In this document: positions 5,470 through 46,473 of the stretch, in pieces
How positions within the stretch are numbered: the first letter of the stretch is position 1
Layout of the letters: every line of letters begins with the position of its first letter
Assembly: GCA_964016885.1 (NCBI GenBank)
Contig: OZ024741.1
Location: forward strand, 346,394,001-346,458,000
DNA: 64,000 nucleotides
Source: Eledone cirrhosa
Taxonomy: Eukaryota
Direction of reading: 5' to 3'
Notes under the pieces: model-generated
Databases searched by the model: none
Seen by the model: only the letters and a program-made list of their open reading frames with translations
Told to the model about the DNA's origin: nothing
Translations under genes and position numbers: made by a program

Positions 5470-6258
5470 GCTGCTACTACACATTCTATCTCCAGTTTAT
5501 GTTGGCTGGCTATTGATGTCAGAGAGAGAGAGAGAGAGTTGCTGCTGCCCTTAGGCTACCTTCGTACCGTGCTGTGGGCTCATCCGGGATTCTGGACAGT
5601 AGGCTGTCGAGATGTTTCTTGAAAACCTCAGTTCTCTTCTCACTTACAACTGCGGGGATCGGACGTGTGTCTCGACTACTCAGGCTTGAACTTTATTGAG
5701 TGGTTTTGGATGTCCTACCTATAGTGGCTCACACATTGCTCGGTTTATTGTATTTTTCGTTATTTTGTTACTGTTTTCTCTTTTCTTCCCCTTTGCTTTC
5801 CTTCCCCCTTCCTTCGTTTCGCCAATAACTTATTCAGTCATTGACGCCTTAGGGTGAGGTATCTTGTCTTTAAAACGTAGAAATATCCGAGATCCACAGT
5901 AGACAACTGATGAGGAACGCCCCCCCCGTTCTTGCTTTCTTCGTATTCCCACTGCATTTTAAGTTACCTTAAAAGCAACTACACAGCCATTTCTATTCTC
6001 CATTTATATATATATATATATATATATTTCTATTTATTTGCCACTAGGGCACAAGAGAAAGGGACAAGTACACAGGGGGGAGTTTACATAAATGCGAGTA
6101 AAGAAAAAGGCATAACAATGAGAATAACATAATAATAAAAAGTCCTCAAAAGGGAGGGGGCGTGTTGGCGATTGCACATATCTCCGAAAAGTGTGCGACT
6201 CTTTTCGCGGGGGAAGCCCAGAGAGGAAGCGCTCCCCCTTTCCTCTTCACTTCTTCAC

Positions 6259-8674
6259 CTACAGAACAATGTAGAGAGAAGGCCCATTTACACGAGCCAT
6301 TCTCGCTTCTTTCACCCATCTTTCATAAAACTGTCTGGGGCCAAGCACTTCTCTCTCCATCCTGATCCTTCTTCCGAAGTGGTATCGGAAGAAGTAAACC
6401 AGGTGTTGGCCGGAGAGAAAGTCACCCGACCTCAGACCTTTCGGACGCGTCCACCACACAACCTCTTTCATCATGGCTATTACGCACAGAAAGACCGCCT
6501 CTGCTTCATTTCTGAAGGGAGGAGGCGGCTTGATGTTCACCACAGACTCGGCGGTCAATCGAATCGGCGCCACACGCGACAGCAGTCGTTCGACGTAGCC
6601 CCACAGATCGGGAACGCCCGGGCAGTGTACCAGTGCATGCGCAACGGTTTCCTCGTCGCGCACGCATCTGGGACAGATCTTTTTCGTGGGATCCCTGCCC
6701 GGGCGCCCGTGTCTGTAGAGCTTTTCTCGAACGGGTAGAGCCCCCCGGTAACACTGCCAGGCTAGGGACCTCTGGAAGTTGTCCATGGGTCCCGGGCCGA
6801 AAGTTCTACCGAACAGGCTGGCCAGTTCGTCCTCCTCCAAGCCTAGCGACTCTCCAAGGGTGTCGTCGCCCCTGCTAGCCACCAGCCCTCTATAGAATGT
6901 CGAGGTGGATTCTCCACTGATAGTCGGGTCCGCTTGCCAGAGAGCCGTGAGCACCTGGGCACACTCGGTGTGCCAGTTGCCCAGTTTTCTCGGTCTTTGC
7001 TTCACCCAGGATTGAAGCTCGGTGAGCGAGACGAGCTGTGGAAAGGCTCGCCTCACAAACGTGGCCCACACCGGCTGTAAAAAAATCTGTAACTCTGCAT
7101 TCAGCAGAGTTAGGGGCCTAAAGTTACTTAAGTCGTCCCCCTTGTTCTCGTCCTTCCTCACTAGCGTGACCACGCCCTTGGTCACAGAACAGGGAATTCT
7201 CCCGTTCTGTTGCCAGTTGCAATAGACAGCCACGAGGAGTTCGGAGAACAAGACCGGCATAGCTAAATAAAGTTCGTATGGAAGACCATCGAGACCCGGA
7301 GATTTGCGTCTGCTGCATTGGCTGAGCGCTTCCCCGATTTCAGTGACTGTGATTGGCCTTTCGCAGCACTCCGCTTCGCCGCTCGAAAGACGCGGTAGAC
7401 CGTCGAGGTATGGACCGAAGTCCACATCCCCGTCCGGCCCCCCGCCCCCTCCGAACAGTCGAGCAAAGTGCCTTTGAAAGGCCTCGCACATCCGCTCAGG
7501 TTCAAGGATCACCCGTCCATCCTGGTCTCGCAAAGACCGAATGGTGGATTTAATCCCACTCTTGGCTTCTGTCGCGCGGGCCCAGCTAACAGCTTTGGTC
7601 CCCTCGTTTCCTAAAGCACGTATTTTACTTCGGACAACGCAGCCTTCGTGCTTCGCGTCAAAGAACTGGCTCAACGCCGTTCTCGCCGCTAACACTCTGG
7701 CCACGTCTCCGCTCCTAATCGCCTCTTCTAGTTTATCTGTTAACTCCCTTTCCTTCCTATTTCTATTCGCCGCTAGTTCCTTACTGTAACCTATCGAACT
7801 TACTCTAATCTCTCTCTTTAGAGATACCCACCACCTGCTGTTGACGATCGCTCCCGTCAACCGCATCTTAACTAAGCTACTAATCCGGTTCCTGTAATCT
7901 TTCTTTGCCGGCAAGGACAAGTTCATCTTCCAGTAACCGGGACCCTGTCTATGCGTTCTATCAAGGTTGACCACGCAGGTAACTAATTTGTGATCTGAAT
8001 AGCCAACCATGATCAATTCTGTACAACTAACTACGTCCCTATCCTTACTCCTAACCCAAAACCTATCTAGGTACGATCTAGATTGACCACTGCGGTTTGC
8101 CGAGGTCCAGGTTGGCGCAGTTGGACAATCTAGTCGAAATCTATCGACCAGGTCGAATCTATCGAGTAACCCCTTGAGGCTGCTACACCCCCCTCTATCG
8201 GGACATGCCCCTGCATAGTCCCAACGCGCATCTAGGATTCCATTCCAGTCCCCCACTAAAAGCAGGGAACGCGACGTTCCTAGAAAAGTCTCCCGACGCT
8301 GGAAGAAGTCGGCTCTTTCAGCCCCGAAGGGGGCATAAAGACCGACCAGTCTGAAAGCCCCGCCTTCACTGCCTCCGACGTCCAGCACCAGTAATCGACC
8401 CCCCGGGTCCGAGTGAACAATCTGTACATCGAGAGCCAGACGTTTATCCAGCATTACGGCACCCTCCCCCCCAACCATCTCCGGGTTGACAGAGAGATGC
8501 GTGCATCTCAAAGTCATCGAAGGCGGGAGCCAGCTGTCGCACGCTGCTGATCCGACTCTCGCAAACAACCATCACATCTATACTTCTTGACTTGAGGTCA
8601 CTTAGAAGCTTTGCTTGCTTCCAAGCTGAGCCCAGGCCACGCGCATTCAAACAGCCAACTCTCAATTGATCTAT
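6259..8674 (-). pseudogene. Tx1 ORF2 (APE endonuclease, linker, C-terminal CxxC..H..C; RT domain missing)
   Basis: RVGCLNARGL, GLYAP, LVGDWN, SYLDRF, YSDH, SPGLDGLP, NFRPLTLLN, then a jump straight to LQIF..CPRC..ETVAHALVHC. Start appears mutated to ATA and there are 5' frameshifts. Confidence 0.9.
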
Positions 8675-10531
8675 TTTGGTGTTGAAAGTGAAGAAAGAAA
8701 AGCACCTACCTCTCCGGGTTGTGTAATTTCCATGGCGTCAGGTGTGTTGGGTGGAGGGATGTTTTGTGGTGGTGTGGGGGTACCCGAGTGTGGTGGGGTT
8801 GGGGTATTTGGAGTTGTGTCAGGGAGAGGGGAGGTTACGGGGAAATCTTTCAAGAGGACGCGATTTAACGGTTTTAAACAGGGGGGGGGGGCTCACGCCC
8901 TGTCTAAATTGTTCTTTTAAGGAGCGATAAAGGTCCAGAGGGACCTTTATCATTTTTAAATGGGTGAAGTTCTCTGTTGAGATAAAGTTTGGCCCTTCAG
9001 TCTGTACCAAAGGGCTATTGTTTATTAATTTAAACAGTTTTTTGTTTTCTTTATTTATATATGTGTATTGCAAAGTCTTTTTTTGTGATGCTGTCAATGT
9101 TTCGGAGAGGGGAGGCGCAGATTTATTTTTGTTTGTCGAGGGTGGGGTGTTTTTGATTGGAGTTGGTGTTTGTGTGTGGGTTATTTGTGGTGTGCTGGGT
9201 GTGTGCTTTCTTTTTTTTCTTTTAACTTGTCTGAAGGCTTCTCCTCCTTCTTCTTCAGAAGTTGGGGGAAACTCTTCAGCGCTAGGTGGGAGGGACGTGG
9301 TGTCTGGTTGTTTTTTTTTTGCGGGATGGGTAGATTTGTTGCTGTTTTTTTATTATTTGTTTGAATGCGTTTTGTGGTGGTGGTGATGATGTTTGTGTCG
9401 TGCTTGTGGTCGGTGATGGTGATGGTGGTGGTGATGTTTGTGTTGTGGTTGGTGATGGTGGTGGTGATTTTTGTGTCGTGCTTGTGTTTGGTGGTGGTGG
9501 TGGTGATGTTTGTGTTGTGCTTGTGGTTGGTGGTGTCTGTATTTTGTTTGCTGTGTGTGGTATTAGTGTATTTTTGGAGGTGGGTGGTGTTGGTGTACTG
9601 TTTGTGGTGGGTGTGGGCAATAGTCCTTTTTGGGGGATACGTTTCGGGCAGTTAGCCTTAACGTGTCCCCTTTCCGTGCATAAATAGCATGCTGGTCTTC
9701 TCCCCTCTACAATTATATATATTGGGGTGAGGTCATCCAGCCAGATGCGATCCGGGATTTGTGCTATTCTTTCGGGCCTCATTTGGACTAGTAGGTCGAG
9801 GCCCATTCCCAGGAACGCATCTCCAGATGCCTTCCCCATTGACAGCACTGTGTCCTCGCCCATGTCTATGAAGCCAGCAATAGCCCACCAGAAGTCCATT
9901 GTGGGCAGCATTGTTTGTATTTTGACTCTCTGTGTTCTTCTACCCATGTAGGAGGGATAGAAGCTGTATGTTGTTGATGAGAGTGGGCTTAGGGAAAGCT
10001 TCTGGGCTGTTTCCTTGTCTTTTGTTAAGACCGAAATCCTGCCATAGAGTCGGTCCTTTCGTATGAAGAGAATATTCTTCATATAGTCTTTTAGGACCAA
10101 CTCTATCTCCATTTGGCTGGGCTGTGCTGGCTTTCTCGTTTGGTTTAGGATTGTTCTGAAGAGAACTGTGCTCTCTGTTCTCGCTTTCTTGAATTCTGGG
10201 GGGGGGGGGGGGGGGGGTTAATGGAAAACATTCCGTTCTCCCCCAAGACTATGTGTTTTTTTGCTTCTGCCAGTTTTTCTCTGGCGGCAGTTAAGTCTAT
10301 TGGTGTATATATTATGGATTGTTTTGTTTTCTGGGCGAAAGTTGCCTTGTTGTTATTTGTATTCTTATTTTCTGTTTGTCTGTTTTCCGTTTGCTCATTT
10401 TCCGTAACATTTGTTTTTTCATTTTCCTTGTTTGTTTCGTTGTCTAGTTTTGTTGTATCTATTTTTTGTTCTTCAGACTTGGGGGGCGTGGCAGAGCTAA
10501 TGGCAGACATGTCTGCCATCTTTTCCGCCAT
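8671..10531 (-). pseudogene. Tx1 ORF1 (gag-like, CCHC zinc knuckle, Pro/Thr-rich tail); frameshifted
   Basis: ORFs 10145-10531, 9282-10112 (EGRRPACYLCTERGHVKANC), 8819-9097 and 8671-8853. Homologous to ORF1 of copy B. Confidence 0.85.
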
Positions 10532-11048
10532 GCTGCCAAGAAAGAAGTTTTACCGAAAAATAGTTATTTATTTTACCCCCTAAAAAGGGGGTAAATGTAA
10601 AAATATTTCCCTAAATAACAGGGGTAAATGTTCCAAATGTGTTGCACTGAAAAAATTCTCTGGTACTTACTATAGTAAGGGTAAATTCCTATAGAATAGC
10701 GGAGCCGATGTGAAGCGTGTCTCACTCTATCAAGATAGATAGATAGATAGATAGATATAAGAAAAAGTATGACCGTGACGGCAGAGCTCAAGCCGCTTCG
10801 ACGGCTATTTCTGGACCAATTACTCAAAATTTGTTCAACACTTCTTAAATATGATTGAATCTTTGTTAAAATCTTACGGGCCGACAGGTAAGATACATAT
10901 ATACATATAAATTTATATATATATTCCGGCTCTGTAAAACACATGATGTATTTACATTGAGCTATTTTTCTTACTGGTAATAATGTGGTAATAAATGACT
11001 GACCTTTCCTGATTATAATTATATGTAGTGTATATATATAAGTATAAG

Positions 11049-23566: not shown

Positions 23567-23600
<34 letters not shown>

Positions 23601-23830
23601 GACTTTCTATTTATTTGCCACCAGGGCATCAAAGATTGGGACAAATACAAGAGGGGGAGTTTACATACATTTCAAGGGACGTGTAAAAACATATAACAAA
23701 TCAAATTCAACAATCGAAGTCCTCCAATAGGAGGGGGCGTTGACGTAGGTCGCACACACCCCTGAAAAGATGTGCAACCCTCCTCCTCAGGAGCACAAAG
23801 AGCGGGTGCTCCCTTCCTCTCCTCTCTCAC

Positions 23831-26800
23831 CTACAGGCTGATATAGAGAGAAGGTCCATTCACTCAGGCCATTCTCGCCACTGTCACCCACCTTTCATAA
23901 AACTTGCTGGGGTAGGGAACCTCTCTCTCCATTCTGATCCTTCTTCTAAAATGGTATTTGAAAAAAAGGACCAGTTGTTGGCCGGAGAGAAAGGTGTCTG
24001 ACCCCAGCCCTTTCAACCTCGTCCACCATACAACCTCTTTAGCCATGGCTATCACACAGAGGGAAAACCGCCTCTCCTTCGTTTTTGAAGGGGGGAGGCG
24101 GTTTGATCGTGACAATGTACTCGGTGGTCAACCGGATTGGTCCCACCCGCGACAGTAGTCGTTCCACATAGTCCCACAGGTCAGCAACGCCCGGGCTTGT
24201 ACGAATGCGTGCTTGACGGTTTCCACGTCACGCACGCATCTTGGAGAGATCTTTTTCGAGGAGTCCCTCCTCGGGCGCCCGTGTCTGTAGAGTTTGTCCC
24301 GAACGGGTAGAGCTCCTCTGTATCACTGCCAAGCCAGGGCCTTTTGAAAGTTGTCCATCGGTCCTGGGCCAAACGTCCTACCCAACAGACTGGCTAGTTC
24401 TTCTTCCTCCATGCGCTTAGCTTCTCCGAGAGCGTCGACGCACTTGCTGCGCACTAACCCTTTATAGAATGTCGAGGTGGAGTCTCCACTCATTGCCGGA
24501 TCAGCTTGCCAGAGGGCCATGAGCGCCTGGGCACATTCAATGTGCCAGTCACCCACTTTTATCGGTCTTTGCTTGACCCAGGATTGCAGTTAGGTGGGCG
24601 AGACGAGTCTCGGAAAGGCTCGCCTCACAAAAGGGGCCCAAAACGGTTGACCGGTGAGGAATATCTGGAGGTGCCGTAGCCTTAATGCGTCTTTACGCAT
24701 GGTCAGCCATGGTAACCCCAGCCCTCCGTTCGAAGGGTGTTGACAGCAGATGGATCTTCTCACCAAAGGGGCCCGCTTCTTCCAAAGGAATTGGAAGAGC
24801 GTGCGCCCCATTTTGGCGAGCGTTTTCGCTGGGCAAGGCACGATGGTCAAGCGGTAGTAGATGACGGACGCTAAAGAAGTGTTGGCCACCTCCGCTCGAC
24901 CTTTCAGGGATAGTTTGCACTCGGTCCACTTCTGGGCGAGTGCAAACACCCTGCCCGTTACTTCGTCCCAGCTTTTCTTCACCTGGAAGTCTGTTCCGAA
25001 CCAGACCCCGAGCAGCTTCACCGGTCCCATCGTCCAGCGTCCGACGACGCCGTCGCAGGGCATCAGTTTGCCTCTCCACGTTCCGAGATGCAAACCGACG
25101 GACTTGTCCGGTTCAGCTTGGCTCCTGTAAACATTTCGTATTCCTCCAGTAAGGTGCCGATCTCCCCGATTTCCGACGCACACGACACCATTACTGTCAC
25201 GTCATCGGCGTAGGCCGACACCGCTTTCCGCAATCCCGGTTCCAAGGGGATGCCCTGTAACAGCTCCAACTTCTGCAGTAGTGGCTCGAGAGCCAGTACG
25301 TACAGAAGGGAGGAGAGAGGGCATCCCTGTCGGGTGGATCGCGTGATTTGGAACGGCTCCGAGAGGTAGCCGTTCACGTTGGCCCTCGAACAAATGTTGC
25401 TGCTGTGTATTGCAGCAATCCGGTCCCTGAAAACGGGCCCGAAGCCTGCCGCCGCGACACCACATCCAGGTACCGATAGTCGACCCTATTGAACGCCTTA
25501 GATTGAACCAAGTTGATCAGGGCCCCACCCAAAGCCGGGTTCACTCCCTACCCTCTCTATGATGTATCGCATGAGGTGGAGGTTGTCGTGTATGGACCTG
25601 GACGGGATTGTGCATGTGTGCGCTTCTCCCACCAGGTTCCCGCCGACAAGCGCTAACACCTTGGCCAAAATCTTTAACTCTGTATTTAGCAGAGTTATGG
25701 ATCTGAAGTTATCTATGTCATCCCCCTTGTTCTCGTCCATCCTCACTAGCGTGACTGCGTCCTTGGTCACAGAACTGGGAATTCCCCCGTTCTGTTGCCA
25801 GTTGCAGTAGACCGCCTCGAGGAGATCGGAGAACAATTCCGGAATCGCTACACAAAGTTCGTATCGTAGACCATCGAGACCCAGAGAGTTGCGTTTGCCG
25901 CATCGGCTCAGCGCTTCCCATATTTCAGTGGCTGAAATCGGCCTTTTGCAGGACTTCGCCTCCCCGTCCGAGAGCCGCGGCAGACCGTCGAGGTATGGAC
26001 CGAAATCCATGGTCTCACCGGCCCGCCGCCCCTCCCGAACAGTCGTGCAAAGTGCCGCGCACATCCGCTCAGGTTCAAGGATCCTTCAAAGACCGAATCG
26101 TGGACTTACTTCCACTTTTTGCCTATCATTCGGGCCCAGCTAACAGCTTTGTCTCCCTCCTTACCCAGAGCACGTATTTTACTCCTAACAACGCAGCCCT
26201 CGTACTTCGCGTCAAAGAACTGGTCTAGGGCCGTTCTTGACGCCAGCACGCCGGCCACGTTGCCACACCTAATCGCCTCTTCTACTCTATCTATCAATTC
26301 CCTTTCAGTTCTATTCCTATCTAATGCTAATTCCTGACTAAAACCTATCGATTCTATTCTAATTGCTCTCTTGAGAGAGCCCCACCACCTGCTGTTGACA
26401 ATTTTCCCCATCAAGCGCTGCTTAACTAAAGTGCTAATCCGTTTACTGTAAGCTTTGTTTGTCGGTAAGTACAAGTTTAGCTTCCAGTAACCGGGTCTTT
26501 GTCTATGGGTTCTATCAAGGTTGACTACGCAGGTGATTAACTTGTGATCTGAATAGTTAACCATGAACATTCGTGGACAGTTTAATATGTCCCTATCCTT
26601 ATTTTAAACTAGGAATCTATCTAGGTACGACCTAGATATTCCGCTGCGATTAGTCCACGTCCACAGTGGCACAGTCGGAAAATCTAGTCGATATCTCTCG
26701 GCAAGGTCAAATCGGCCGATTAACTGTTTGAGGCTGTTACACCCCCCTCTATCGGGACATACCCCTACATAATCCCAGCGTGAATCCAGGATACCATTCC

Positions 26801-27223
26801 AGTCCCCCACTAAAAGCAAGGAGCGGGAAGTTCCCAGAAAATCTCTAGACGTTGGAAGAAGTCTGGTGCGCGGTGTCCCAGATGGGGCATACGCTGCCAC
26901 CAGCCTGAAGGCTCCACCTTCCCTACTGCGACGTCTAGAACCACCAGTCGACCCTCTGGGACCAGGTGTACCTTCTGTGTTGCGAGGTCCAGGTGTTTTC
27001 GCAGCAGAACGTCAATCCCACCCCCATCCCCCGGCTGACAGAGAGATGCATAGTTCTCAAAGTCGTCGAAGATGGGGGCCAGTTAGTGCTCGCTGCTGAT
27101 CCTGGACTCGCAAATAGCTATTACATCCATTCTGTGCGACCAGAGGTCTTTTAAGAGTTTGCCCTTCTTCCAGGACATCCCCAGGCCGCGCATATTTAAA
27201 CATCCAACTCTTATAACAGCCAT
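23831..27223 (-). pseudogene. Tx1 ORF2 (APE plus RT), many frameshifts
   Basis: AAYAP, LVGDWN, SYLDRF, YSDH, NFRSITLLN, TRQGCPLS, AYADD, KLLGVWF, GGLGLP. Confidence 0.92.
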
Positions 27224-27264
27224 GTTGGTGGTGAAGAGTTAAAGTGGAGAAAAAGAAAAGACAC

Positions 27265-29061
27265 CTACCTCTCCGTCTCCTGGGGACCAGGCTGCACAAT
27301 TTCCATGGGGGTGTTGGAGGGGTTCTTTGGTGGGGGGGTGGTTTGGGGTGTGGTGGGGACATCAGTGCGTGGTGGGGTTGGGGTGTTTGGTTGGGTGGGG
27401 GTCTCTGGGGTGGTGGTTTTGAAACATTTCAAAAAAACGCGGTTGGAGGGTCTAGTACAGGGATTCCCCACGTCCTCGGGAAAGTTTTGTTCGAGCATTG
27501 CGTAAGTGTCCCTTGGGACTCTAATCATTTTCAAATGCGGTTTATTCGCCGCGTTGGTGAACATTTTCCCTTCGGTTTCCACCGAAGGGTCTTTTTCTAT
27601 TGTTTGTACAAGTGTTTTATTGTTTGTGTTGATGTATGTATAATGTTTTTGTTGTGTTGTGTTTGTTTTAGTTTGTTGTTCTTGTGTGTGTTTGCGTTTT
27701 GTAGTATGTGTTATATTTTCGGGAGGGGTGGTTTTTGTTCGTGATGTTTGTTCTGTTTGTGCCGGTGGTTGTGTATTTGTTGTATTTTTGTTAATGTGGT
27801 GCCTTCTTTTCTTTCTTTTTACTGGTTGAAAGGGCTCTCCCTCGTCGTCACTGGGTGACGTTGATAATGGGTCCTCGTCCGTGTTGTTGGTGAGGGGTAT
27901 ATTTTGTGGTTTTGTTGTGGTTGCGGGTGCTTTTGTATTTGTTTTAAGTGGGGAGGGGTTGAGTGGGACAGTGTCTTGTGTTGTTACTTTTTCGTACTGT
28001 TGTGGTTGTTGTTGTTTGTGTAGTGGTGGTTTTGTTGTTGTGTTCGGGGTTGGCAGAAGAGCCTTTTTTTTGACTCGTTAATTGAGGACAGGCAGCTCTC
28101 AGGTGACCTCTGCTTAAGCAGTGGAAACATGACGGCCGCCTACCCTCAACTGAAATGTTTATATAGGTTAGCCCATCCAGAGGCACGCGTTGTGGGATTT
28201 TAGCTATTCGTTCTGGGCTCATTTGAACCAGAACTTCTACGCTGGTCCTACTAAATACACCTCTGGAGTACTTTCATACTGAGATTATCTGTCCTCATCA
28301 AAATCAATGAATCCACATAGTATCCACCAAATATTTACATTTGGTGTGATACTCATAATTTTTATTTTTTGTGTCCTTTTCCCCCTGTAACAGGTGAAAC
28401 GGGGGGGGGGTACACAATGGGTGATACAGCGTATTTTTGTGCCGTTGGCTGGTCATTCATTAGCACCGAAATGCTACCAAACAGTTTTCCTCTTTGGATG
28501 AAGGTTATGTCCTTCATTGCATCTTTTAGAACCAGCTCATTTCATTTAGTGATAATTGAGCTGGTTTTCTAGTTGCGTTTGATATTGTCCTGAAAGCCAC
28601 AGTTTTCAGGACAGTATCTCTACGTAATACTTGGGGAGAATTGATGCTATAAAAGCACCGTTTTGTCCAAAAGTTACATATTGTTTTGCATCTTGGAGTA
28701 GCAGTTTTGCGTTAGTGATGTCAATTGGAGTGTATAGTTCCTTTTTTTTTACAGTTTGTGCCAAGGATGTTTTGGTGTTGTTGTCTTTCTTGTTGTTGTT
28801 ATTGTTGTCACTGTTGTTGATGTTGTTCATATTTTCCTTGGTGTTGGTGTTGTTATTGTTGCAGTTGTTGGTTGTGGTGTTATTGTCATTGTTCTTGTTG
28901 TTGGTGCTGGTATTATTTCCCTGGTTTGGTTCCGTGGTTGCAATATTGACAACGTTTTTCGATAAGGCGAGGGGGGAAGGATGTAAGCCTACCTTCCTTC
29001 TACCACTTTTCTTAGTGGGCGTGACATTCACTACAGCGTGAAAGGTTGAAATGGCATCCAT
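27265..29061 (-). pseudogene. Tx1 ORF1 with CCHC knuckle; frameshifted
   Basis: YTPIDIT (copy A has YTPIDLT), EGRRPSCFHCLSRGHLRAAC, HLKMIRVP (copy A has HLKMIKVP). Confidence 0.85.
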
Positions 29062-29372
29062 TACTAACTAACAAGTCTACACAAATTTTTCAGTTGAAAA
29101 TTTCGCCCCAAAAAGGGGCGAAAATTAGTTAACCCAAAGTCTGAAGGCCCAGACGAGGGGTTAAACTAAACAATAATAACAAATTCAACAATAAACTCAC
29201 AGTTTTTTGTACAATAATCCGTAAAAAATCCGGAGCGAAGTAATACACGTCTACCAATCAGGAAGATAGATAGATATATATCTAGTCAGATACAAGGCAA
29301 TTAGATAGATGTTTATTTATTGTCAGAATATATGGAGGACAGTGTTCTGACCATTGGCCGTCGCATATCTCC

Positions 29373-32242: not shown

Positions 32243-32664
32243 TTATTTGTTGTATCGAATCTTTATAAATTATTTCTCTAATTATTCAATCATCAAATGT
32301 GTTTGGGAATCTCAGTTTATTGTTTAAGTGAAAAGAAAACAATTTGAATAACCTATAATAGCATAAGCATAAAAACAAATAACGAAACGAAATTAAATTT
32401 CGTTTCGTTTGTAACTCACTTTTGTATGACTGACGCTTAAACAATTAAGTTAAAGATGTACATCCATATATGTATACTGAAATACTAGTATGTATATGAA
32501 TACACACACGTATACATATGTAGGTGTACCAAGTTTTTTCACTGGTCACTTTACTGTGAGTGGCCAGCTATTCTGTATGTAAACACACAGACAAACCGGT
32601 TTTTAGAGTCATACTGGTTTTTGAGGAAACACCTCTCCTCTATTCTCCAGAAAGCCAGACAAGG

Positions 32665-32709
32665 AATATTGAACTAGTTTCGTTGTTGTTACAACTCATC
32701 AGCAATATT
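32665..32709 (-). ncRNA. Minimal type I hammerhead ribozyme (inverted arm)
   Basis: AATATTG-CTGATGA-GTTGT-aaca-ACAAC-GAAA-CTAG-TT/CAATATT. Confidence 0.9.
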
Positions 32710-32888
32710 TACCTATCTTCCGGCCTCTCTAGAGAATCGTAAAAGCACATATCGTTATATGCTTTTTCTATGAAAATTAGTAGTGGGCAGACTCTATGCA
32801 AATTAGTCTGCCCACTACTAATTTTCATAGAAAAAGCATATAACGATATGTGCTTTTACGATTCTCTAGAGAGGCCGGAAGATAGGTA

Positions 32889-32933
32889 AATATTGCTGAT
32901 GAGTTGTAACAACAACGAAACTAGTTCAATATT
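32889..32933 (+). ncRNA. Minimal type I hammerhead ribozyme, predicted cut after 32926
   Basis: 7-bp stem I, perfect core, 5-bp stem II, palindromic stem III (ACTAGT), GUU triplet. Confidence 0.9.
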
Positions 32934-33355
32934 CCTTGTCTGGCTTTCTGGAGAATAGAGGAGAGGTGTTTCCTCAAAAACCAGTATGACTCTAAAAACC
33001 GGTTTGTCTGTGTGTTTACATACAGAATAGCTGGCCACTCACAGTAAAGTGACCAGTGAAAAAACTTGGTACACCTACATATGTATACGTGTGTGTATTC
33101 ATATACATACTAGTATTTCAGTATACATATATGGATGTACATCTTTAACTTAATTGTTTAAGCGTCAGTCATACAAAAGTGAGTTACAAACGAAACGAAA
33201 TTTAATTTCGTTTCGTTATTTGTTTTTATCGTCTCCGTTGAACCGGTACTTACTCACACTCTATGCAAATTAGTCTGCCCACTACTAATTTTCATAGAAA
33301 AAGCATATAACGATATGTGCTTTTACGATTCTCTAGAGAGGCCGGAAGATAGGTA

Positions 33356-33400
33356 AATATTGCTGATGAGTTGTAACAACAACGAAACTAGTTCAATATT
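33356..33400 (+). ncRNA. Minimal type I hammerhead ribozyme, predicted cut after 33393
   Basis: Identical to 32889-32933, 467 nt downstream. Confidence 0.9.
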
Positions 33401-33855
33401 CCTTGTCTGGCTTTCTGGAGAATAGAGGAGAGGTGTTTCCTCAAAAACCAGTATGACTCTAAAAACCGGTTTGTCTGTGTGTTTACATACAGAATAGCTG
33501 GCCACTCACAGTAAAGTGACCAGTGAAAAAACTTGGTACACCTACATATGTATACGTGTGTGTATTCATATACATACTAGTATTTCAGTATACATATATG
33601 GATGTACATCTTTAACTTAATTGTTTAAGCATAAGCATAATTCTAAGAAAATTTCTGACAGGAATCGTGATAGGAAAGCTCCCGAAAAAAGAGACTCATT
33701 CAGCACCTTGTCATATTATTTTACGAGATTCACAATTGCCAATATTTATATTGACATAGTCATAATTTATATACGCAACGTATTAATGTGGCAAACTGAA
33801 GGATCTTTACACAAGCCATTACTTCTCTCATAAGTATACTCAATCTGTACTTTTT

Positions 33856-37000: not shown

Positions 37001-37514
37001 TGATTTAAATCAGTAATGTTTAGTTTGTCTGTGATGATAATGTTTTTGAGAATTATGTTAGTCTTGTGTATTATCTTTTGGTTCTGTTTGGAGTTCTGGA
37101 TCTTAGGGAGGGTGTCTCGTTGCCCCATGTCAGATTCTTTCATTTTCATCCATTCGATCATAATTTCATCCTTCAAGTTGGCAAGTTCATTCTCATTCAT
37201 TTCTTTATCATTTACGATCTCATTATTTTCATTTGGAGTTTCATCCTGAGCATGCACTCCCTCCACTTTTTCGATCCTTTCTTTAATTTGTTCTGTTGCC
37301 ACTGATTCCGCCCCAACCCTGGGATTTAAGTGTTACAGTTTACCTCGTTTTCACTGACACATGTTTCATTTTCCCTTCGCTGACTTTGTACTAATAGCTT
37401 GATCTGATCAATTTCTATATCAGTTAGTAACTTTTTTCTTACAATATTTCTTCGTATATTGGCTAGTTTGTTACTGTCAATATAGCCTCTGTTTTCGGGA
37501 TGTTTCTTTTTCCA
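34030..37514 (-). mobile_element. R4/Dong-clade non-LTR retrotransposon, 5' truncated, with (TAA)n tail
   Basis: Single-ORF layout RT, CCHC, restriction-like endonuclease. The 3' end runs into (TAA)n, the known Dong target. Confidence 0.92.
34174..36459 (-). CDS. Dong/R4 polyprotein C-terminal part: RT, zinc knuckle, PD-(D/E)xK endonuclease (761 aa open)
   Basis: WKSPGKD, NYRPITCL, IDYKKAFDS, GIFQGDSL, YMDDLKLFAK, YKYLG, GGRGL, CRVC..ETIDHIISMC, RPDIILKD..LLIDMSVP..EKLSKY. Upstream parts (36526-37302, 37326-37514) are frameshifted. Confidence 0.93.
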   Translation of the reverse strand: MRLALRKTSKWKSPGKDKIQNFWINAFTESHELLAQLYNEIVKEPEKIPSWLVNGITFLLLKNDETNNPKNYRPITCLTTMYKILTSVLTEYTYDHLITNDLFPIEQKGCKRGSYGCKDQLLVNKMILEDCHNRHKNLSIAWIDYKKAFDSLPHSWIEKCLEIFKISPVVRRFLSFSMKTWKTTFLWDSETKSLEAGEVNINCGIFQGDSLLPLLFCIALIPLSKMLNETKHGYKVYDKTINHLFYMDDLKLFAKNDEQLQGLLSTVEQFSDDIKMEFGLDKCAKATFTRGKLLKSSDINLDRGNVIRELDQEKTYKYLGVCEGDGIKHSTMRERIRKECYRRIRAILRTELNARNRIDAIKTLAIPVVTYSYNVINWSSTEIRRLDTKIRKFLTMHRMHHPKADIDRIYLPRKEGGRGLIQLDIALKTATIGLSTYLRESHDWMIKLVLKHESIKRSYSITKDAQRYSNGLQISEVPFTAEMENTEKAKQVKVTAKKELLQKLAKKWQEKPLYGKYPERANIPDVDKTLTHQWLASSGLKSETEGLIISAQYQCLPTTNYQANIIKNGCSPLCRVCKKQPETIDHIISMCSPIAPTEYLNRHERAAQYIHWILCKHFDLPHQKNWWEHQPPPILEKDHISILWNFSIQTDRKIDANRPDIILKDFQKRICLLIDMSVPIDKNVSIKTFEKLSKYKDLEIEIGKMWKLRTKTIPVVVGALGMIPKGSNDYLSQIPGNPRIGEIQKIVLMGTAYILRKILSI

Positions 37515-40500
37515 GTTGAAAGCGAGGACATTCAAACAAAGGGGAGATTTTTGAAATGAGCACATTTTGCGTGCCAGAAGATTTGCTTCTGGTCCGAATG
37601 TCACTCAATTCTTTCAAAGAAATTCGAGAGAGCTTTCCTCAAGACGTGGGAAACCCGAATGTGAAACCCACATCAAGACTTTTAAAGGGGTTCCCAAAAG
37701 AAACCCCACCAACCATGGAGGTCGAACCACCCGACCTTCACAAGACCCGGGAGGTAAGTAAACCTTCCCTCTCTCTCTCTTAGCTTACCAATATGGCCAT
37801 ATTAAGAGTAGGAAGTTTAAATGTTCGCGGCCTGGGGTCACCCTGGAAGCAGGGTCGCCTGCTCAACGACCTCCGGTCGCTGGAAATGGATGTGATTGCC
37901 GTAAGCGAGACCAGAATTTCCGACACGCGTGCACTAGCCCCCATTTTCAACGACTATCAGATCTTCGCATCTGTTAGCAGGCCGGGAATGGGGGGTGGGG
38001 TGGCAGTGCTGTTTAGGAAAGGACTGGATCTCGAGGTAAGGTCGATCTTCCGGGACCCGGACGGTAAGTTGTTGGTCTTGGATGTGAGCAGTAGCGAAGG
38101 TGGTGCCTTTAGACTGCTGGCCGCCTACGCCCCTACAGGGGCCGGACGACCTGACTTCTTTAGGCGCCTGGAGACCTTTCTGGGTACGTCTCGCCCTTTA
38201 CTGTTAGCGGGGGACTGGAATGGCATCTTAGACGCACGCTTGGATTGTGTGGGAGTAGCCGATAGGAGCGGGGGTGCAAAAGCCTCAAGCACCTACTCAG
38301 CCAGTTCCAACTGTCTGACAGGTATCGACTAGATTTCCCCAATGTGCCAGTATGGACATGGACCAACCGAATGGGGTCATCTAGATCGTATATAGACAGA
38401 ATCTTCATTAGGAAAATAGATAGAAATAGTGTGGGCTGTCCACTTTTTAAAACGGTCGCCTATTCAGATCACAAATTTGTGATCTGTACGGTCGACCTAA
38501 ATAAAACGCGTAGGTTAGGACCGGGTTACTGGAAGCTGAACATGTCATTTCCGGCACGTAAGGCTTACAGGGACCGAGTCAATAAGTTAGTTAAGCAAAA
38601 GTTGACAGGGGGGATCATCAACAACAGATGGTGGGGAGCTCTCAAAAGAGAGATTAGAGTAACTTCGATAGAGTTCAGCAAAGAACTAGCGTTAGAGAAA
38701 AATAGAAAGGAGGGGAGCTGGTAGATAAGTTAGACGAGGCTTTTTGTAGTGGCATCGCAACTGACGTGCTAGCGGCGAGAATGGCATTAGACCATTTCTT
38801 CAATGCCAAACACGAAGGTTGCATTGTCAGAGCTAAGACGCGTGCGCTGAGAAACGAGGGAACTAAAGCTGTTCGATGGGCCCGCGTGGTGGAGGCGCAG
38901 CGTGGTAATAAAACCACAATTCGGTCTTTGGCGGACCGAGACGGACATGAGATGAGCGATTCCAAGCGGATGTGTGAGGCCTTTCGCTAGCACTTTGCTC
39001 GGTTGTTCGGGGAGAGTGGCGGGTCAGAGAAAGTAGCGGATTTCAGTCCCTACCTTGACGGCTTGCCGCGCATCTCGACGGTCGACGCTGAGCGCTGCGA
39101 AAGGCCGATTACTTCAGCCGAAATTCAGGACGCCCTTGTCGGCTGCATGAGGCGCAAGTCACCAGGCTTGGATGGCCTGCCCTACGAGCTTTACGTAAAT
39201 ATGCCAGACATGTTCTCCGAACTCCTTGAAGCACTCTACTGTAACTGGCAGCAGAATGGGAGTATTCCCAGTTCTGTGAGCTGGGGAGTGGTGACGCTGA
39301 TAAGGAAAGACGAGAACAAGAGGGATGCATTAGACAACTTCAGGCCCATAACTCTGCTCAACACAGAGTTTAAGATTTTGGCCAAGGTGTTAGCAAAGAG
39401 ATTGGCGCTTGTCGTCGAGGATTTGGTTGGGGAGGCGCAAACTTGCGCAATCCCAGCCAGGTCCATACACGACAATCTCCACCTCATGCGATACATCATA
39501 GAGAGGGTAGGGTGTAAACCTGGCTTCGGTGGGGCACTGATCAATTTAGATCAATCGAAAGCATTCGATAGGGTCGACCATCGGTATCTGGAGTTTGTCC
39601 TCAAAGCAGCTGGCTTCGGCCCTGTCTTTAGAAGCTGGATCGTTGCAATGCACAGCGGCACACGCTCGGTGGTCAAAGTTAATGGCCACCTCTCGGAACC
39701 ATTTCGGCTCTCCCAATCAGTCTGTCAAGGGTGCCCTCTCTCTTCCCTTCTGTACGTATTGACTCTCGAGCCTTTACTGCGGAAGCTGGAGCTGTTGCAG
39801 GGCATCCCGCTCAAACCGGGACGTGGAAAGGCGGTGTCGGCTTATACGGACGACATCACCGTGATGGTGTCGAACACCTCAGAAATCGAGGTGGTCGGCA
39901 CCTTATTGAAAGAATATGAAAGGTTGACAGGAGCTAAACTTAACCCGGAAAAGTCGGTGGGCTTGCAGCTCGGAACCTGGAGAGGCAAGCCCATGCCGTC
40001 CAACAGCGTCGTGGGGCGCTGGACGGACGGACTAGTAAAGTTGCTCGGGGTTTGGTTCGGACCAGACCTCCAGGTGGAAAAGAATTGGGACGAGGTAATG
40101 AGCAGAGTAGCCAGTCTCACCCAAAAATGGGCTGGGAGGCAGCTATCACTGAAAGGTCGCGCGGAGGTGGCGAATGCGTACATCGCGTCCGTCATCTATT
40201 ACCGCCTAACCGGCGTGCCTTGCCCCCGTCCGCGCCTCGTCAAGTTGGAACGGCTCCTCTTCAAATTCTTGTGGAGGGGACAAGTTCCGTTCGTGAGGCG
40301 GTCCATCTGCTGCCAGCACCCTCTACACGGAGGGCTGGGCATGCCGTGGCTAATGATGCGCAGACATGCGTTGAGGCTGCGAGATCTCCAGATATTCTGC
40401 CTCAATGGTGAACAGGTGTGGTCGCCGTTTATCAGACGGGCCTTTCCGCAGCTCATTTCTTTGACTGAGCTGCAGTCCTGGGTCAAGAAGAGACCGAGAC

Positions 40501-41487
40501 TGGGTGACTGGCACCTGGAATGTTACCAGGCACTCACTGCCCTCTACCAAGCGGGCAATGCGATCAGTGGAACTTCCACTCTCGAGTTTTATAGAGGATT
40601 AGTGGTGGGCAAGTGCGATGACGCACTCGGAGAAGCTTTGGGCCTCGACGAAGTCGAACTGACCAGTCTGTACCGGAGGACTTTTGAGCCGGGGACGATG
40701 GACAATTTCCAGAAATCCCTCGCTTGGCAGTGCTACCGGGGGGCACTGCCGGTTCGGGATAAACTCTACAGGCACAGAAGTGCTGTCAGACAGACCTGCC
40801 CAAGATGCGCACAGAACGACGAAACCGTTCTGCACGCACTTGTCCAATGTCCGTGCATTACTGACTTGTGGAGTTATGTCGAACAGCTACTGTCGCGTGT
40901 GGAACGAATCCAGTTATCGGCCGAGTCCATAGTGAAGATCGAGCCGCCACCTTCCTTAGGTCAGGAAGAGCAGGACATTTCCCTCTGTCTGGTGGCAGTT
41001 GCGAAAGAGATTATATGGTGGACCAGGTTGAAAGGACTAAAGACAGACACTTTTCTCTTCGGCCAATCCCTCATCAACTTCTTCAAGTTTCACCTGGAAA
41101 GGAGGGTGAGGGTGGAGAGAGAAGTGCTGCCCCCCAGTACATTTGCTAAAAGGTGGGTGAATGTGGCAAGAATGGCTCGTGTGAATGGGCCTACTCTGAC
41201 CATGCGCCTATAGGCTAGCTAACTTGAGGAGAGGGGTGCTCTCCTGGGTGCCCTAGAAGCGCAGGGTGGTTCAGGATTGGTGGGGTACCCGAATCACCCC
41301 AGGGTCGTCCACCCCCTATCGGGGAATTTATTTTGTTATATTTTGCATAGTTTATTTTATATTTTACATTTTCATTGTTAAATTAGTCTTGCCATTGTGC
41401 ACATTTACTCGACCTTATTGTAAATCCCCACTGTCCCTGTCTTTGTATTGTCCCCTACATGTCGGCCCTTGTGGCTAATAAATGAAA

Positions 41488-41489
<2 letters not shown>
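37515..41489 (+). mobile_element. L1/Tx1-clade LINE, copy C (only the last part of ORF1 remains), with (TTA)n tail
   Basis: ORF1 end FPQDVGNP (copy B has FPEDVGNP); ORF2; AATAAA at 41477. Confidence 0.93.
37793..41213 (+). pseudogene. Tx1 ORF2 (APE, RT, C-terminal Cys motif); two frameshifts and one stop, last 736 aa open
   Basis: RVGSLNVRGL, AAYAP, GDWN, YSDH, NFRPITLLN, LDQSKAFDRV, QGCPLS, AYTDD, CPRC..ETVLHALVQC. Confidence 0.94.

Positions 41490-41546
<57 letters not shown>
41490..41546. repeat. (TTA)n separating LINE copies C and D
   Basis: Directly visible. Confidence 0.98.
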
Positions 41547-41761: not shown

Positions 41762-43580
41762 ATGGATGTCTCAGAGTCACTCCTTCCTCACACTCTAACA
41801 CTTCACACCGACACCACCATTGTAAATATTGCTACGTTTGCCAACACTGGAAATCTAAGCAGTAGCAAATTTTAAATTTGTCTCAGGCAGACGTTCATTT
41901 CCCGCCATTACCAATGACTGCAGGTGTTAAAGCCGCCACCACCACCACCACCGCGACAACCACCACCCCCACCACCACCACAGCGACAACAGAAACAAAA
42001 GAAAAAAATAAATTAACTCGTGATATCGAAATGAATTCAACCAAAATGAACTCTTCTACACCGAACACCACAACTGAAACTAAAATTAGCAATAGCAAAA
42101 ATAACGATAACAACAACAGCAACAATGAAATTAAGAAAACTACCCTGAGTTTTGCCAGAGTAGCAAAAACGTGCGAAGCGATCCAGGTAACTCAGGAGGA
42201 ATTAGAAGAAGCCAAAGGAATGGTAAAGAAAGATGGGTACAGGGTCAGCCTCACTCCCCCCACACCTAATAAAATGGAGCAACGTCGCCTATGCACCGTG
42301 TCTTATCGGACAATTAACATAAAGTCGCGCCGAGTGGAACGAGCATCCGAGTCCAAAATCCAAAAAGCTTTGGGACATGTGTGGGCAAAAAACCCCCACA
42401 TCAGACGTGGGCAGAAGTATGGAACCGTGGATGTGTTCTTTCAAACACCACAGGAGGATAGAGAACACTCCATGGCTCCATTAAGAAGTGACGACTTCAC
42501 ACTCGTCCCAAGCTATTGTGGCCAGAGACTTTTGAAGATCAGGGTGACCCACGTTCCACCGGCCATCGAAATTCCCTGGCTAATGGCTGCCGTCCTCGCC
42601 GGCATCGAAGCCAACACCAACATAATTGAAATAGCGAAAGAAAAGCAGGAGAACTGGTCCGGATCTGGGATGGAGCTCCTGATCCAAGCGGACCATAAAC
42701 GCATTGAGGAGATCCCAGAGGTAATATACCTCACTGACGGCAGCCACCTCTCTTACCCACCCCAGTGACTCAACCATCAACACCACCAGCAGCAGAAATG
42801 GCAGAAACAACTGTAGCAGCAACAACAGAAGCAACTGTAACAGCAACAACCCCAGCAACAATAGCAAAACCAACACCATCACCACCTAACGCGCCAGATC
42901 TAGCACCAGCGCCTACACCATCCACCACGCCACAACCAAAACCAAAGCCTGTGGAGGATTTTCCACTCCCCGGCTTATCACAACTGGAGACAGATTGTGA
43001 CGACGAGGAGTGGGAAACGGTATCAGGAAAAAATAAAAAATAAACCAAAAAAGAAAAAATTCTCTTCCAAAAACAAAATACAGAGGGAAACAAATAAATC
43101 ATCAAACAAAAAAGTTAGGACAGATATGCCACCATCCATACCAGCATCACCAACCCCATCACCACAAACACCAACACCATCACCATCATTAACCCCAACA
43201 CCACCATCACCAACACCAGAAAAGTCACCAAAAAGCGTAACAGAAACAACAAACGCAAACAAAACAAAACAACCAAAACGATACACACTACACAGCATTA
43301 AATTTGAACAACAACCAATTATTACACTACATGCAACACAACACCAGCATCACAGAAAAAAGACTACACAACAACCCAAAAGTTCACACCACCTCCACAC
43401 ATACAAATCACTCGCATCACACAGAAAACGTTCATGACACTAAAACAAAAATTCCCCAAAGTCATCGGAGACTTCCGACAAACACACTCCAGGAGGATTT
43501 CTAAGGACATCCTTCCGGAGGAGGCCACAAGCAGTGAAAAGGATGGACAAACCATCCTTCCTCTACGAGAAGTAAGGTAA
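41762..43580 (+). pseudogene. Tx1 ORF1, disrupted; zinc knuckle region apparently deleted near 42755
   Basis: IVNIAT (copy B has VVNIAT), SFARVAK, LVPSYCGQR (copy A has FYPSYMGRR), IEEIPEVIYLTD followed directly by the Pro/Thr tail. Confidence 0.78.
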
Positions 43581-43614
43581 GTGGTCTTTCACATCTTTTC
43601 CACTCCATTTCAAC

Positions 43615-46232
43615 ATGACCTCACTCAGAATAGGCAGCATAAATGCGCGTGGCTTGGGGTCGTCATGGAAGCAGGGCCACCTGCTCAACGACCTCAGGTC
43701 ACTAAACATAGATGTAGTGGCTATCAGCGAGACCAGAACTCCGAAGCACGGGCCTTCGCACCGATCTTCGGCGGCTACGATGTGTACGCATCTCCCAGCC
43801 GTCCGGGATCGGGGGGAGGAGTTGCTGTGCTTTTTCGGAGAGGTTTGGATCTCGCCATACGGGCCATCTTCCTGGACCCAAAAGGTAAGTTGGTGGTGCT
43901 AGACGTGACCAGCGGAGACGGGCAAGCTTTCAGGCTAGTGGCCGTCTATGCCCCGACAGGAGCAGGGCGGCCTGATTTCTTCCGGCGTCTGGAGACCTTT
44001 CTTGGAACGTCCCGCTCATTAGTGTTAGTGGGCGACTGGAACGGGATCTTAGATGCACGCTGGGACTGTGTAGGATTAGTGGATAGGGGAGGAGGTTGCA
44101 AGAGTCTCATCAACCTGCTCAGGCGTTTTGAACTGTCTGACAGGTACCGATTGGATTTCCCGAATGTGCGAATGTGGACTTGGACAAATCGCATAGGGTC
44201 ATCCCGAACATATCTAGATAGAGTATTTTGTAGGGAAATAGATTGGTCTAGCATAGGCTGTCCACAATTCAAGATAGTCAGCTACACGGACCACAAATTC
44301 GTGATCTGTGTGCTTGACTTAGATAGGCTTCATACTGGAAGCTAAACGCGTCCTTACCAGCGCGCAAGGCCTACAGAGACCGGATTAGCGAACTATTTAA
44401 GCGAGCGTTGACGGGGGCCATCGTCAACAACAAGTGGTGTGCTCTGAAAAGAGCAATTAGAATAGAGTCCATTAGGTTTAGTAAGGCTTTAGGAATAGAG
44501 AAAAATAGAGCAGAGGGAGAATTAGTTAGAAAATTAGACGAGGCGCTTAGCAAAGGCATCGCGACCGACGTACTTGCGGCGAAATTGGCCCTTGACCAAT
44601 TCTTCAATGCAAAGTCGAAGGCTGCGTTGTCAGAACTAGGGTGCGTGCTCTCAGACCCGAGGGGACGAAAGCCGTTCAATGGGCCCGAGTGGCGGAGGCG
44701 CGTCGTGGCAACAAAGCCACGATCCGGTCTTTGGTGGACTACGACGGGCGCATGCTACTCGATCCCGGGCAAATGTGTGAAGCTTTTCAGCGACACTTCG
44801 CTCAGTTGTTCGGGGGCAGCGGCGGGCCGGATCGAGGGATGGACTTTAGTGTCTACCTCGACGGACTGCCGCGGCTCTCGGTCACTGAGGCGGAGTGTTG
44901 CGAAAAGCCGATAACAGCCGCTGAAGTACGGGAGGTAATGACTAGCTGCACAAGAATCGCCTGGTTTGGATGGTCTGGCCTATGAACTTTACGTACATAT
45001 ACCAGACTTGTTCGGAGCCCTCTTGGCGGACGTCTATTGCAACTGGCAACAGAACGGGAGAATTCCTAGCTCTGTGAGCCGAGGAGCTGTGACGCTGCTG
45101 AGAAAGGATCCGAACAAGGGGGATAACATAGATAATTTTAGGCCCATAACATTGCTAAACACAGAGTTCAAGATTTTGGCCAAAGTGCTAGTAAAGAGGT
45201 TGGCGCTTGTCGTTGGTGGTCTGGTGGGAGAACGCAGACATGCGCCATTCCCGACAGATCCATCCACGAGAACATCCACCTCATGCGATACATCGTAGAG
45301 AGGGTAGCTAGGGAACCTGGCACGGGTGGGTCCTTGATCAATTTAGATCAATCGAAAGCTTTCGATAGGTTCGACCATCGTTACCTAGCGGCAGTCCTGA
45401 GGGCGGCTGGCTTTGGGCCCGTCTTCAGAGGCGGGATCGCTGCCATGCACAGCGACATCTGCTCTGTGGTGAGAGTGAACGGTCACCTTTCGGAACCGTT
45501 CAACATCATGCACTCGGTCCGCCAAGGATGTCCCCTCTCGTCCCTCTTGTACGTATTGACTCTCGAGCCATTACTGCACAAACTGGAGACGTTGAGAGGG
45601 GTCCCGCGAGAACTAGAATGCGGAAGATCCGTGTCAGCATATGTGGACGATGTCACCGTAGTGGTGTCGAACGCCAAACACATCGAGGCGATCGGCACTG
45701 CACTAAGAGAATACGAAGCGGTGACATGAGCAATGATCAACCAGGAAAAGTCAGTGGGCCTGCAGCTCGGCACCTGGAGAGGCAGGTCCATGGCGTCCAA
45801 CAGCGTCGTCGGGCATGTCCGAGATGCGCGCAGGGCGACGAAACCGTCCTGCACGCACTCGTCCAGTGTCCGAGCATTGCTGACTTGTGGGTTTATGTCG
45901 AACACATGCTGTCACGTGTAGAACGGATCCGTCTATCAGCTGAGTCCATCGTGAAGATTGCCCCGCCCTCTTCCTTTAGCTGGGAAGGGCAGGCAGTTTT
46001 TATCTGTCTGGTGGCCATGGCGAAAGAGATAGTATGGTGGACACGTTTGAAAGGGCTGAAGACGAGCACTTACTTCTTCGGTGATGCCCTGATTAACTTT
46101 TTCAAATTTCATTTAAAAAGGAAAATCAGGGTAGAGAGGGAAATGCTCTCTTCCCAGAATTTTGTTGAAAGATGGGTGAGAGAAGCAAGTATGGCCCGTT
46201 TGAATGGGCCTACTCTGAGTATGTGTCTGTAA
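43615..46232 (+). pseudogene. Tx1 ORF2 (APE plus RT), frameshifted, with about 0.8 kb deleted near 45814
   Basis: RIGSINARGL, AVYAP, GDWN, YTDH, LDQSKAFDR, VRQGCPLS, AYVDD. SNSVVG is joined directly to CPRCAQ. Confidence 0.92.
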
Positions 46233-46447
46233 ATTAAAAGTGGAAAACTGGGAGAGGGCACTTGCCCTGGTGGTCAGGGTCACTGTGGCCTTTTAATGGG
46301 CTTTCTCCACAAATGTCTCTCGGAAGTCTCCCCCCTATTGGGGAATTTTTCATTGTTATTTTTTAGTACATCCTCTGTTTTTTTACACGCAGAAATGCCC
46401 ATTTGTACCGTACTGTTTTGTCAACCCTTGTGGTTAATAAAGAAAGC

Positions 46448-46473
46448 ATTATTATTATTATTATTATTATTAT

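Follow-up and report, generated by a model that had tools for sequence, protein, structure and literature searches.

The analyzed window is a 64,000-nucleotide (nt) stretch of the Eledone cirrhosa genome (contig OZ024741.1, positions 346,394,001 to 346,458,000) that contains four related copies, A to D, of a long interspersed nuclear element (LINE), 68-77% identical in the DNA of the second open reading frame (ORF2). All four carry a splice-donor motif at the border between ORF1 and ORF2, and a first-pass annotation had proposed that ORF2 as a whole is an intron. Copy A (6030..10732, minus strand; borders judged by eye from the flanking (ATCT)n and (AT)n microsatellites) has a full-length 5' end and an internal deletion. 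Copy B lies at 23600..29260 (minus), the 5'-truncated copy C at 37500..41490 (plus), and copy D at 41840..46450 (plus). All four copies end in microsatellites, as elements with a target preference for repeats would, but the window itself is 5% microsatellite.

In copy A, ORF1 (8671..10531, minus) runs from the ATG at 10531 to an unspliced stop TAG at 8673-8671 and is broken by frameshifts in homopolymer runs. It encodes a putative CCHC zinc knuckle (9642..9692, minus; PF00098, E 0.0049, under the curated cut-off), with a visible CX2CX4HX4C pattern. The ORF2 remnant (6259..8674, minus) includes an APE endonuclease, frameshifted near 8470, and a zf-RVT domain, and it ends in TAG; the reverse transcriptase (RT) is deleted, and in a domain profile search RVT_1 had no match in this ORF2. 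The in-frame deletion junction in the RT lies at 7077..7082 (minus), with about 1007 nt missing relative to copy B. As a splice product this deletion was rejected, because the junction shows short microhomology and no GT-AG. An AATAAA stands at the 3' end (6033..6038, minus). Copy A, which belongs to an L1-clade LINE family, is dead, and it is therefore the family that matters, not this copy. Its ORF2 start position is ATA (8674-8672), overlapping the unspliced ORF1 stop, and the homologous position is ATG in copies B, C, and D. The ATA appears to be common to the majority of the copy A family, no variant being listed at 8672; other family variants, seen at the loose ends of contigs, carry ATG. 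AUG-independent reinitiation of human L1 ORF2 is a possible precedent for an ATA start.

On its domain content the family belongs in the L1 clade, with an APE endonuclease, an L1-like RT, and zf-RVT all present. The endonuclease of copy A matches PF03372 (E 5e-6) as well as L1 endonuclease structures, copy C has an RVT_1 match, and zf-RVT (PF13966) is matched in copy A at E 4e-5, under the cut-off, and in copy C at E 1e-8. The best solved match of the family profile is human L1 ORF2p (E 7.7e-120), with R2 at 3e-39. Copy C encodes an ORF2 product with 65% identity to a protein of Argonauta hians and 50% to one of the cuttlefish Acanthosepion pharaonis; protein searches with ORF1 gave no match, and the single match of an Rfam search on 5 loci (E 0.19) is at chance level. 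Placement in the Tx1 group is likely; a CCHC knuckle in ORF1, here a weak match, is a mark of that group.

On the minus strand of copy A, GAG|GTAGGT occupies 8704..8712 with its GT at 8709, just as the first-pass annotation had it. The distance of 35 nt to the ORF2 start was also given correctly, although the codon found there is ATA and not ATG. The intervening spacer (8675..8703, minus) is pyrimidine-rich and free of AG. In the four window copies, AG|GTARGT precedes the ORF2 start by 35, 45, 39, and 38 nt (A to D), each time with a pyrimidine tract on its 3' side, and it sits in spacers that otherwise align poorly among the copies. The relaxed motif AG|GTRRGT occurs 12 times in the 128,000 bases of both strands of the window, giving a chance of P = 0.003-0.006 for one such motif per 60 nt. 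Among contigs assembled from sequencing runs (sets X1 and X4), GTAAGT is the majority donor variant of the copy A family; the plus-strand change 8706 C>T has a depth of 2384 of 3266 in X1 and 34.7 of 34.7 in X4. Compared with the consensus of U2-type splice sites, the predicted 5' end of an ORF2 intron conforms.

Donor phase, set here by the reading frame of the conserved ORF1 C-terminal domain, is 0 in copies A and C (donor of C at 37754) and 2 in copies B and D. In copy A the phase is that of the tail frame, the tail being homologous to that of copy B, and 14 nt before the donor are deleted relative to B. The donor of B, at 27268, contains the ORF1 stop; the donor of D is AAG|GTAAGT at 43577. 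Because the phase differs among the copies, no codon constraint accounts for the donor. Judged from these alignments, the border donor is kept far beyond chance, whatever the reading frame.

The same arrangement recurs in much more distant elements. When GTDB contigs were scanned, 42 loci came from two bacterial metagenome-assembled genome (MAG) records carrying animal DNA (G001 and G002). These loci are 42-43% identical to the window family in ORF2, and one of their families is 74% identical to the Acanthosepion pharaonis protein; by sequence, a squid or cuttlefish is the probable host. In a quick tree, whose outgroup was too long for rooting and which included no reference Tx1 sequences, the distant family is split from the octopod clade by a branch of 1.17 changes with 100% support in the Shimodaira-Hasegawa-like approximate likelihood-ratio test (SH-aLRT). 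In the main family of G001, all 65 ORF1 ends carry G|GTAAGT (586,450 bases on 16 contigs); the order is ORF1 stop, G|GTAAGT, 7 nt, and ATG, and three of the seven spacer bases vary. Of three decayed copies in G002, one keeps the donor in another context, one has a point change in it, and one a deletion. A second G001 family, L001, lacks the border donor, so that the donor may have been lost there or gained twice; the unrooted tree fits either. In copy D of the window, the donor stands in tandem pentamers, GTAAG GTAAGT (43572-43582, plus), a string identical to that of the distant G001 family.

The border is not the only place where these elements carry a donor. A second one follows directly after the ORF2 stop in 62/62 distant units and in 3/3 of the L001 family, and an acceptor-like site, a better candidate than the ORF2 stop itself, lies 240-280 nt past the ORF2 stop in 49 of the 62. 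The 3' untranslated region (UTR) of the L001 family contains a textbook 145-nt donor-acceptor pair. Candidate 3'UTR introns are thus L001:3340-3485 and L013:7748-8010, each with a strong donor after the ORF2 stop and strong acceptor-like sites downstream, and they are kept in all genomic copies read. Near the 5' end, a donor motif is present in 54 of 61 array units, vs 21% in shuffles; a few of these are chance matches in truncated units. In the window, copy A has a candidate 138-nt 5'UTR intron (10533..10670, minus). It would run from ATA|GTAAGT at 10670 to an AG at 10533 that follows a pyrimidine tract and stands 2 nt upstream of the ORF1 ATG. Copy B has a candidate counterpart of 133-137 nt (29064-29200, minus) that ends just before its ORF1 ATG. 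An X4 contig appears to cross the 5'UTR donor of copy A unbroken.

Donors at three positions (5' end, ORF1 end, and after the ORF2 stop), all retained in the DNA, fit equally well a role in which U1 small nuclear ribonucleoprotein (U1) binds them and ORF2 is never removed. U1 would then suppress premature polyadenylation in the A-rich ORF1, aid transcription, or retain the full-length RNA in the nucleus, and TAG|G would be an ordinary stop. This is the main rival of the splicing reading, and we consider it rather unlikely. In its favor, ORF1 of copies A, B, and D contains 3-5 AATAAA vs 0-2 in ORF2, in A and B the nearest is 278-317 nt upstream of the donor, every genomic copy retains all the sites, and U1 is described as blocking premature termination in the plant retrotransposon EVD (PMC5580714). 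However, in L013 the 2.2 kb upstream of a donor that matches at 7/7 positions contain no A(A/T)TAAA, whereas the L001 family has A(A/T)TAAA at -142 but no border donor. The strong acceptor-like sites downstream of the UTR donors also speak against it. Nor does U1 binding without splicing explain the frame-matched stops after the predicted join, to which we return below.

It is quite improbable that the motifs are merely inherited or held by some other constraint, such as stops in several frames, a reinitiation signal, or a protein-binding site, with only a chance resemblance to splice sites. ORF1 of B and D does end in a stop codon contained in GTARGT, but the motif is read through in A and C, where it ends no ORF1 frame, and in the distant family the ORF1 stop precedes it. 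A human L1 donor is reported to be kept as part of a RUNX3 site (PMC5860796), and the L001 family has intact ORFs without a border donor; against this, the full consensus, followed by a U-rich tract, stands at three positions in unrelated contexts.

The candidate 3' splice acceptor of copy A coincides with the ORF2 stop (6259..6280, minus): a tract with 15/18 pyrimidines leads to TAG at 6261-6259, followed by G, in agreement with the first-pass annotation. TAG|G stands at the ORF2 stop in A, B (23831), and C (41213), and not in D. Among all YAG sites ranked by pyrimidine content, the ORF2-stop AG is 1st of 89 in A (tied), 1st of 105 in B, and 14th of 124 in C, and a synonymous-codon null for the tract gives P = 0.018, 0.23, and 0.07, respectively. 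Thus, a pyrimidine tract with YAG is present in A and B, middling in C, and absent from D. No convincing branch-point match was found by eye, in a stretch that is coding. Since A and B are sisters, the support for the acceptor amounts to about two lineages and is modest. On these comparisons, an acceptor at the ORF2 stop is modestly supported, in the A, B, and C lineages only. Copy A had been put forward as independent support for a model described for copy C, which was overstated: the two copies are homologous (about 70% DNA identity in ORF2), and their shared TAG stop can be inherited.

The predicted join gives the reading frame that had been claimed for it, with three added codons (V, K, and K) and a stop in copy A. 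When each copy is joined in its own frame, A, B, and C all reach a stop within 4 codons; the background is 6-13% per position. In copy B, the spliced and unspliced forms of ORF1 share the last residue and the stop. The phase-0 stop of copy A lies within 7 nt that follow the acceptor and are absent from B; they accompany the 14-nt deletion of copy A before the donor. An acceptor located before ORF2, which would yield an ORF2-only mRNA like the human SpORF2, was considered and rejected, as copy C is the only one with an AG in the spacer from donor to ORF2 ATG.

Another possibility, which we regard as unlikely, is that the donor is spliced to a different acceptor, which might lie in ORF2, farther into the 3'UTR, or in host DNA downstream. 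With such a splice, which may be coupled to early termination like that of plant copia elements, ORF2 would not be a clean intron. In copy A, a second AG just before the poly(A) signal (6044..6065, minus) scores equal to 6259, and copies C and D have higher-ranking AGs elsewhere. The donor is also far better conserved than the acceptor, as in Ty1/Copia (PMC5580714). However, the ORF2-stop AG is first-ranked in A and B, the AG at 6044 has no homolog in B, C, or D, and ORF2 is nearly devoid of poly(A) hexamers that could end a short RNA.

The reading that we favor, if tentatively, is that ORF2 is an alternatively retained intron and that partial splicing yields an ORF1-only mRNA, much like the short gag RNA of copia elements. 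U1 would bind the border donor of the family transcript, and a fraction of the transcripts would be spliced from there to a site that coincides with the ORF2 stop or closely follows it. A, B, and C would use the stop TAG itself as the acceptor; copy D and the distant family would need one in the 3'UTR. The unspliced RNA, in which the ORF1 stop and the ORF2 start are close or overlapping, would yield ORF2p and serve as the template of retrotransposition, so that the splice signals would stay in the genome. The spliced RNA would provide an excess of ORF1p. Nonsense-mediated decay depends on the position of the stop relative to the last junction. As the ORF1 stop would lie at this junction or a few codons from it, the spliced RNA would escape such decay. 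The sequences show the motifs, how they are conserved, and the reading frames; use of the motifs in splicing is what we infer. The earlier proposal that ORF2 is an intron is partly supported, with a well-conserved donor and a weaker acceptor.

Several observations weigh against this proposal. Coding alone yields 6/7 donor matches elsewhere, through an R-W-V motif, and the border donor is missing from 3/3 members of the L001 family. Copy D ends ORF2 with TAA (46230-46232), with no AG there, and its synonymous null gives P = 0.74. In the distant family, the ORF2-stop TAG lies in an inverted-repeat loop and is TCG in 7/62 units, and TAG is found at none of the 4 ORF2 ends of G002. Hydrophobic C-terminal residues alone enrich a tract in pyrimidines. 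The post-junction stops of A and C are also in the ORF2 frame and may be back-up stops for ORF2, and a B-like loose end in X4 has TAG|G but no stop in its 6 visible codons, in phase 0 or 2. Finally, a spliced DNA copy is found in none of the 65 array units, though a spliced RNA would retain the 3' tail.

The spliced junction was also sought in four sets of run contigs aligned to copy A at 80% likeness, none of which is on record as RNA and in which rare forms are dropped. This search, too, counts on the negative side. Of the 49 joints over the whole of copy A, 15 were listed, and none of these links donor to acceptor. At 8540-9000 (X4 and X1), none of the 2 joints and none of the 12 loose ends listed out of 29 fell at 8710, and X4 contigs cross the donor (8540-8835) and the acceptor (6030-6627) unbroken. 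There is thus no abundant joined form among the rows examined, and nothing beyond that is shown. In X4, main-variant ORF1 contigs have a depth of 131-403, vs 24-35 over the donor, ORF2, and the A-type 3'UTR, the fall being near 8820-8885 and not at 8710; X1 is flat at 2874/2704/2384. Contig depth cannot rank the parts of one gene, and this pattern was not used as evidence. A precise intron-less genomic copy of the SpIRE or HAL1 type was not found; copy A is unspliced, and its deletion lies off the splice sites.

A wider proposal, which is possible but more doubtful than the retained intron itself, is that some cephalopod L1-clade LINEs, as a group, have the layout of a small spliced gene. U1 sites would mark the 5'UTR, the end of ORF1, and the region after ORF2, and the whole of ORF2 would be a regulated retained intron. 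Splicing would set the ORF1p:ORF2p ratio and, as in retroviruses, only the fully unspliced RNA would retrotranspose; the arrangement would have been kept or re-evolved across lineages 42% identical in ORF2. What is new here is the conservation of the donor in a distant lineage, the co-variation of frames, and the three-donor layout. If the proposal is true, LINEs have a second means of setting the ORF1p:ORF2p ratio, comparable to those of copia and retroviruses, and ORF1-only elements have an evident path of origin. If U1 acts without splicing, this would still be a conserved use of U1 sites by LINEs.

Some further features were observed along the way. In G001, contigs C3-C15 and C17-C19 (L001-L041, L051-L062, L064-L087) are head-to-tail arrays of intact full-length LINEs with a period of 6.4-6.8 kb, dozens of open 1158-amino-acid frames, and several unrelated 5'UTR types. 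The arrays probably arose from self-targeting insertion, and their presence in a bacterial-titled MAG record is animal host contamination. Contig C16 of G002 (L042-L050) is a 539-kb animal-like contig with decayed copies of the LINE group, in a record titled Rhodospirillales MAG. At L013:7725-7740, a 6-bp inverted repeat holds the ORF2 stop in its loop; one subfamily has TTCG there and reads through to a stop within the 3' donor motif. No relative turned up in metagenome contigs, where scans gave 0/88 and 1/174, the one being a bacterial chance match (L063), or in viral contigs (0/85). In the window, an unrelated LINE (34174-37332, minus), with a 779-amino-acid RT-bearing frame (RVT_1, E 5e-27), lies directly upstream of copy C. 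The interval 32369-33635 holds a perfect inverted repeat of 425 nt (spacer 11 nt) and, at a distance of 467 nt, a direct copy with 100% identity; this may be a fold-back duplication or an assembly artefact. An internal deletion in copy D (45810-45820, plus) has removed the linker from late RT to zf-RVT.

In its ORF1 with a putative CCHC knuckle, its ORF2 with APE, RT, and zf-RVT, and its microsatellite flanks, the window family resembles L1-clade/Tx1 LINEs. The Tx1 group includes the microsatellite-targeting Kibi and Koshi (PMC4494074), and L1-Tx1 is listed with 13 families in Octopus vulgaris (PMC13282606). A term search of the main texts found no mention of splice signals around ORF2 in PMC4494074 or PMC13282606, and neither 'splic' nor 'intron' occurs in those of PMC13282606 and PMC11203168. 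Among titles and abstract openings, we found no description of a LINE ORF2 as a splice-flanked intron; most subscription journals, Repbase reports, and supplements were outside this scope. The introns of TART are antisense (PMC1636488).

LINEs are thought to rely on an unspliced bicistronic RNA, with splicing as a harmful by-product (PMC5860796). In human L1, donors in the 5'UTR remove 5'UTR or ORF1 sequence, and the products, SpORF2 and SpIREs, are described as dead ends (PMC2896524, PMC5860796). The window family likewise has splice sites within the LINE transcript, functional in human L1 and putative here; unlike in human L1, the donor is at the ORF1/ORF2 border and would remove ORF2.

HAL1 is an ORF1-only, non-autonomous LINE whose ORF2 is deleted in the DNA. 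TRE5-A.2 is likewise an ORF1-only non-autonomous LINE, a DNA element with ORF2 deleted (PMC3159450). The layout predicted for the spliced RNA, 5'UTR, ORF1, and 3' tail, is the same, whereas no ORF2-deleted DNA copy was seen here in the run contigs or the 65 array units.

The closest parallel comes from another class of elements. In the plant Ty1/Copia element EVD, a short gag RNA, shown in RNA, arises from a short intron coupled to premature termination; its proposed purpose is an excess of structural over catalytic protein, and U1 has both roles (PMC5580714). As in EVD, a conserved U1-binding donor stands at the end of the structural gene and is better kept than the acceptor (PMC5580714). Unlike EVD, which is a long terminal repeat (LTR) element, the window family is non-LTR, its predicted 3.4-kb intron is the whole of ORF2, and its 3' end would be the normal one. 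By analogy, the window family would work like the short gag RNA system of Ty1/Copia elements without being a member of that group.

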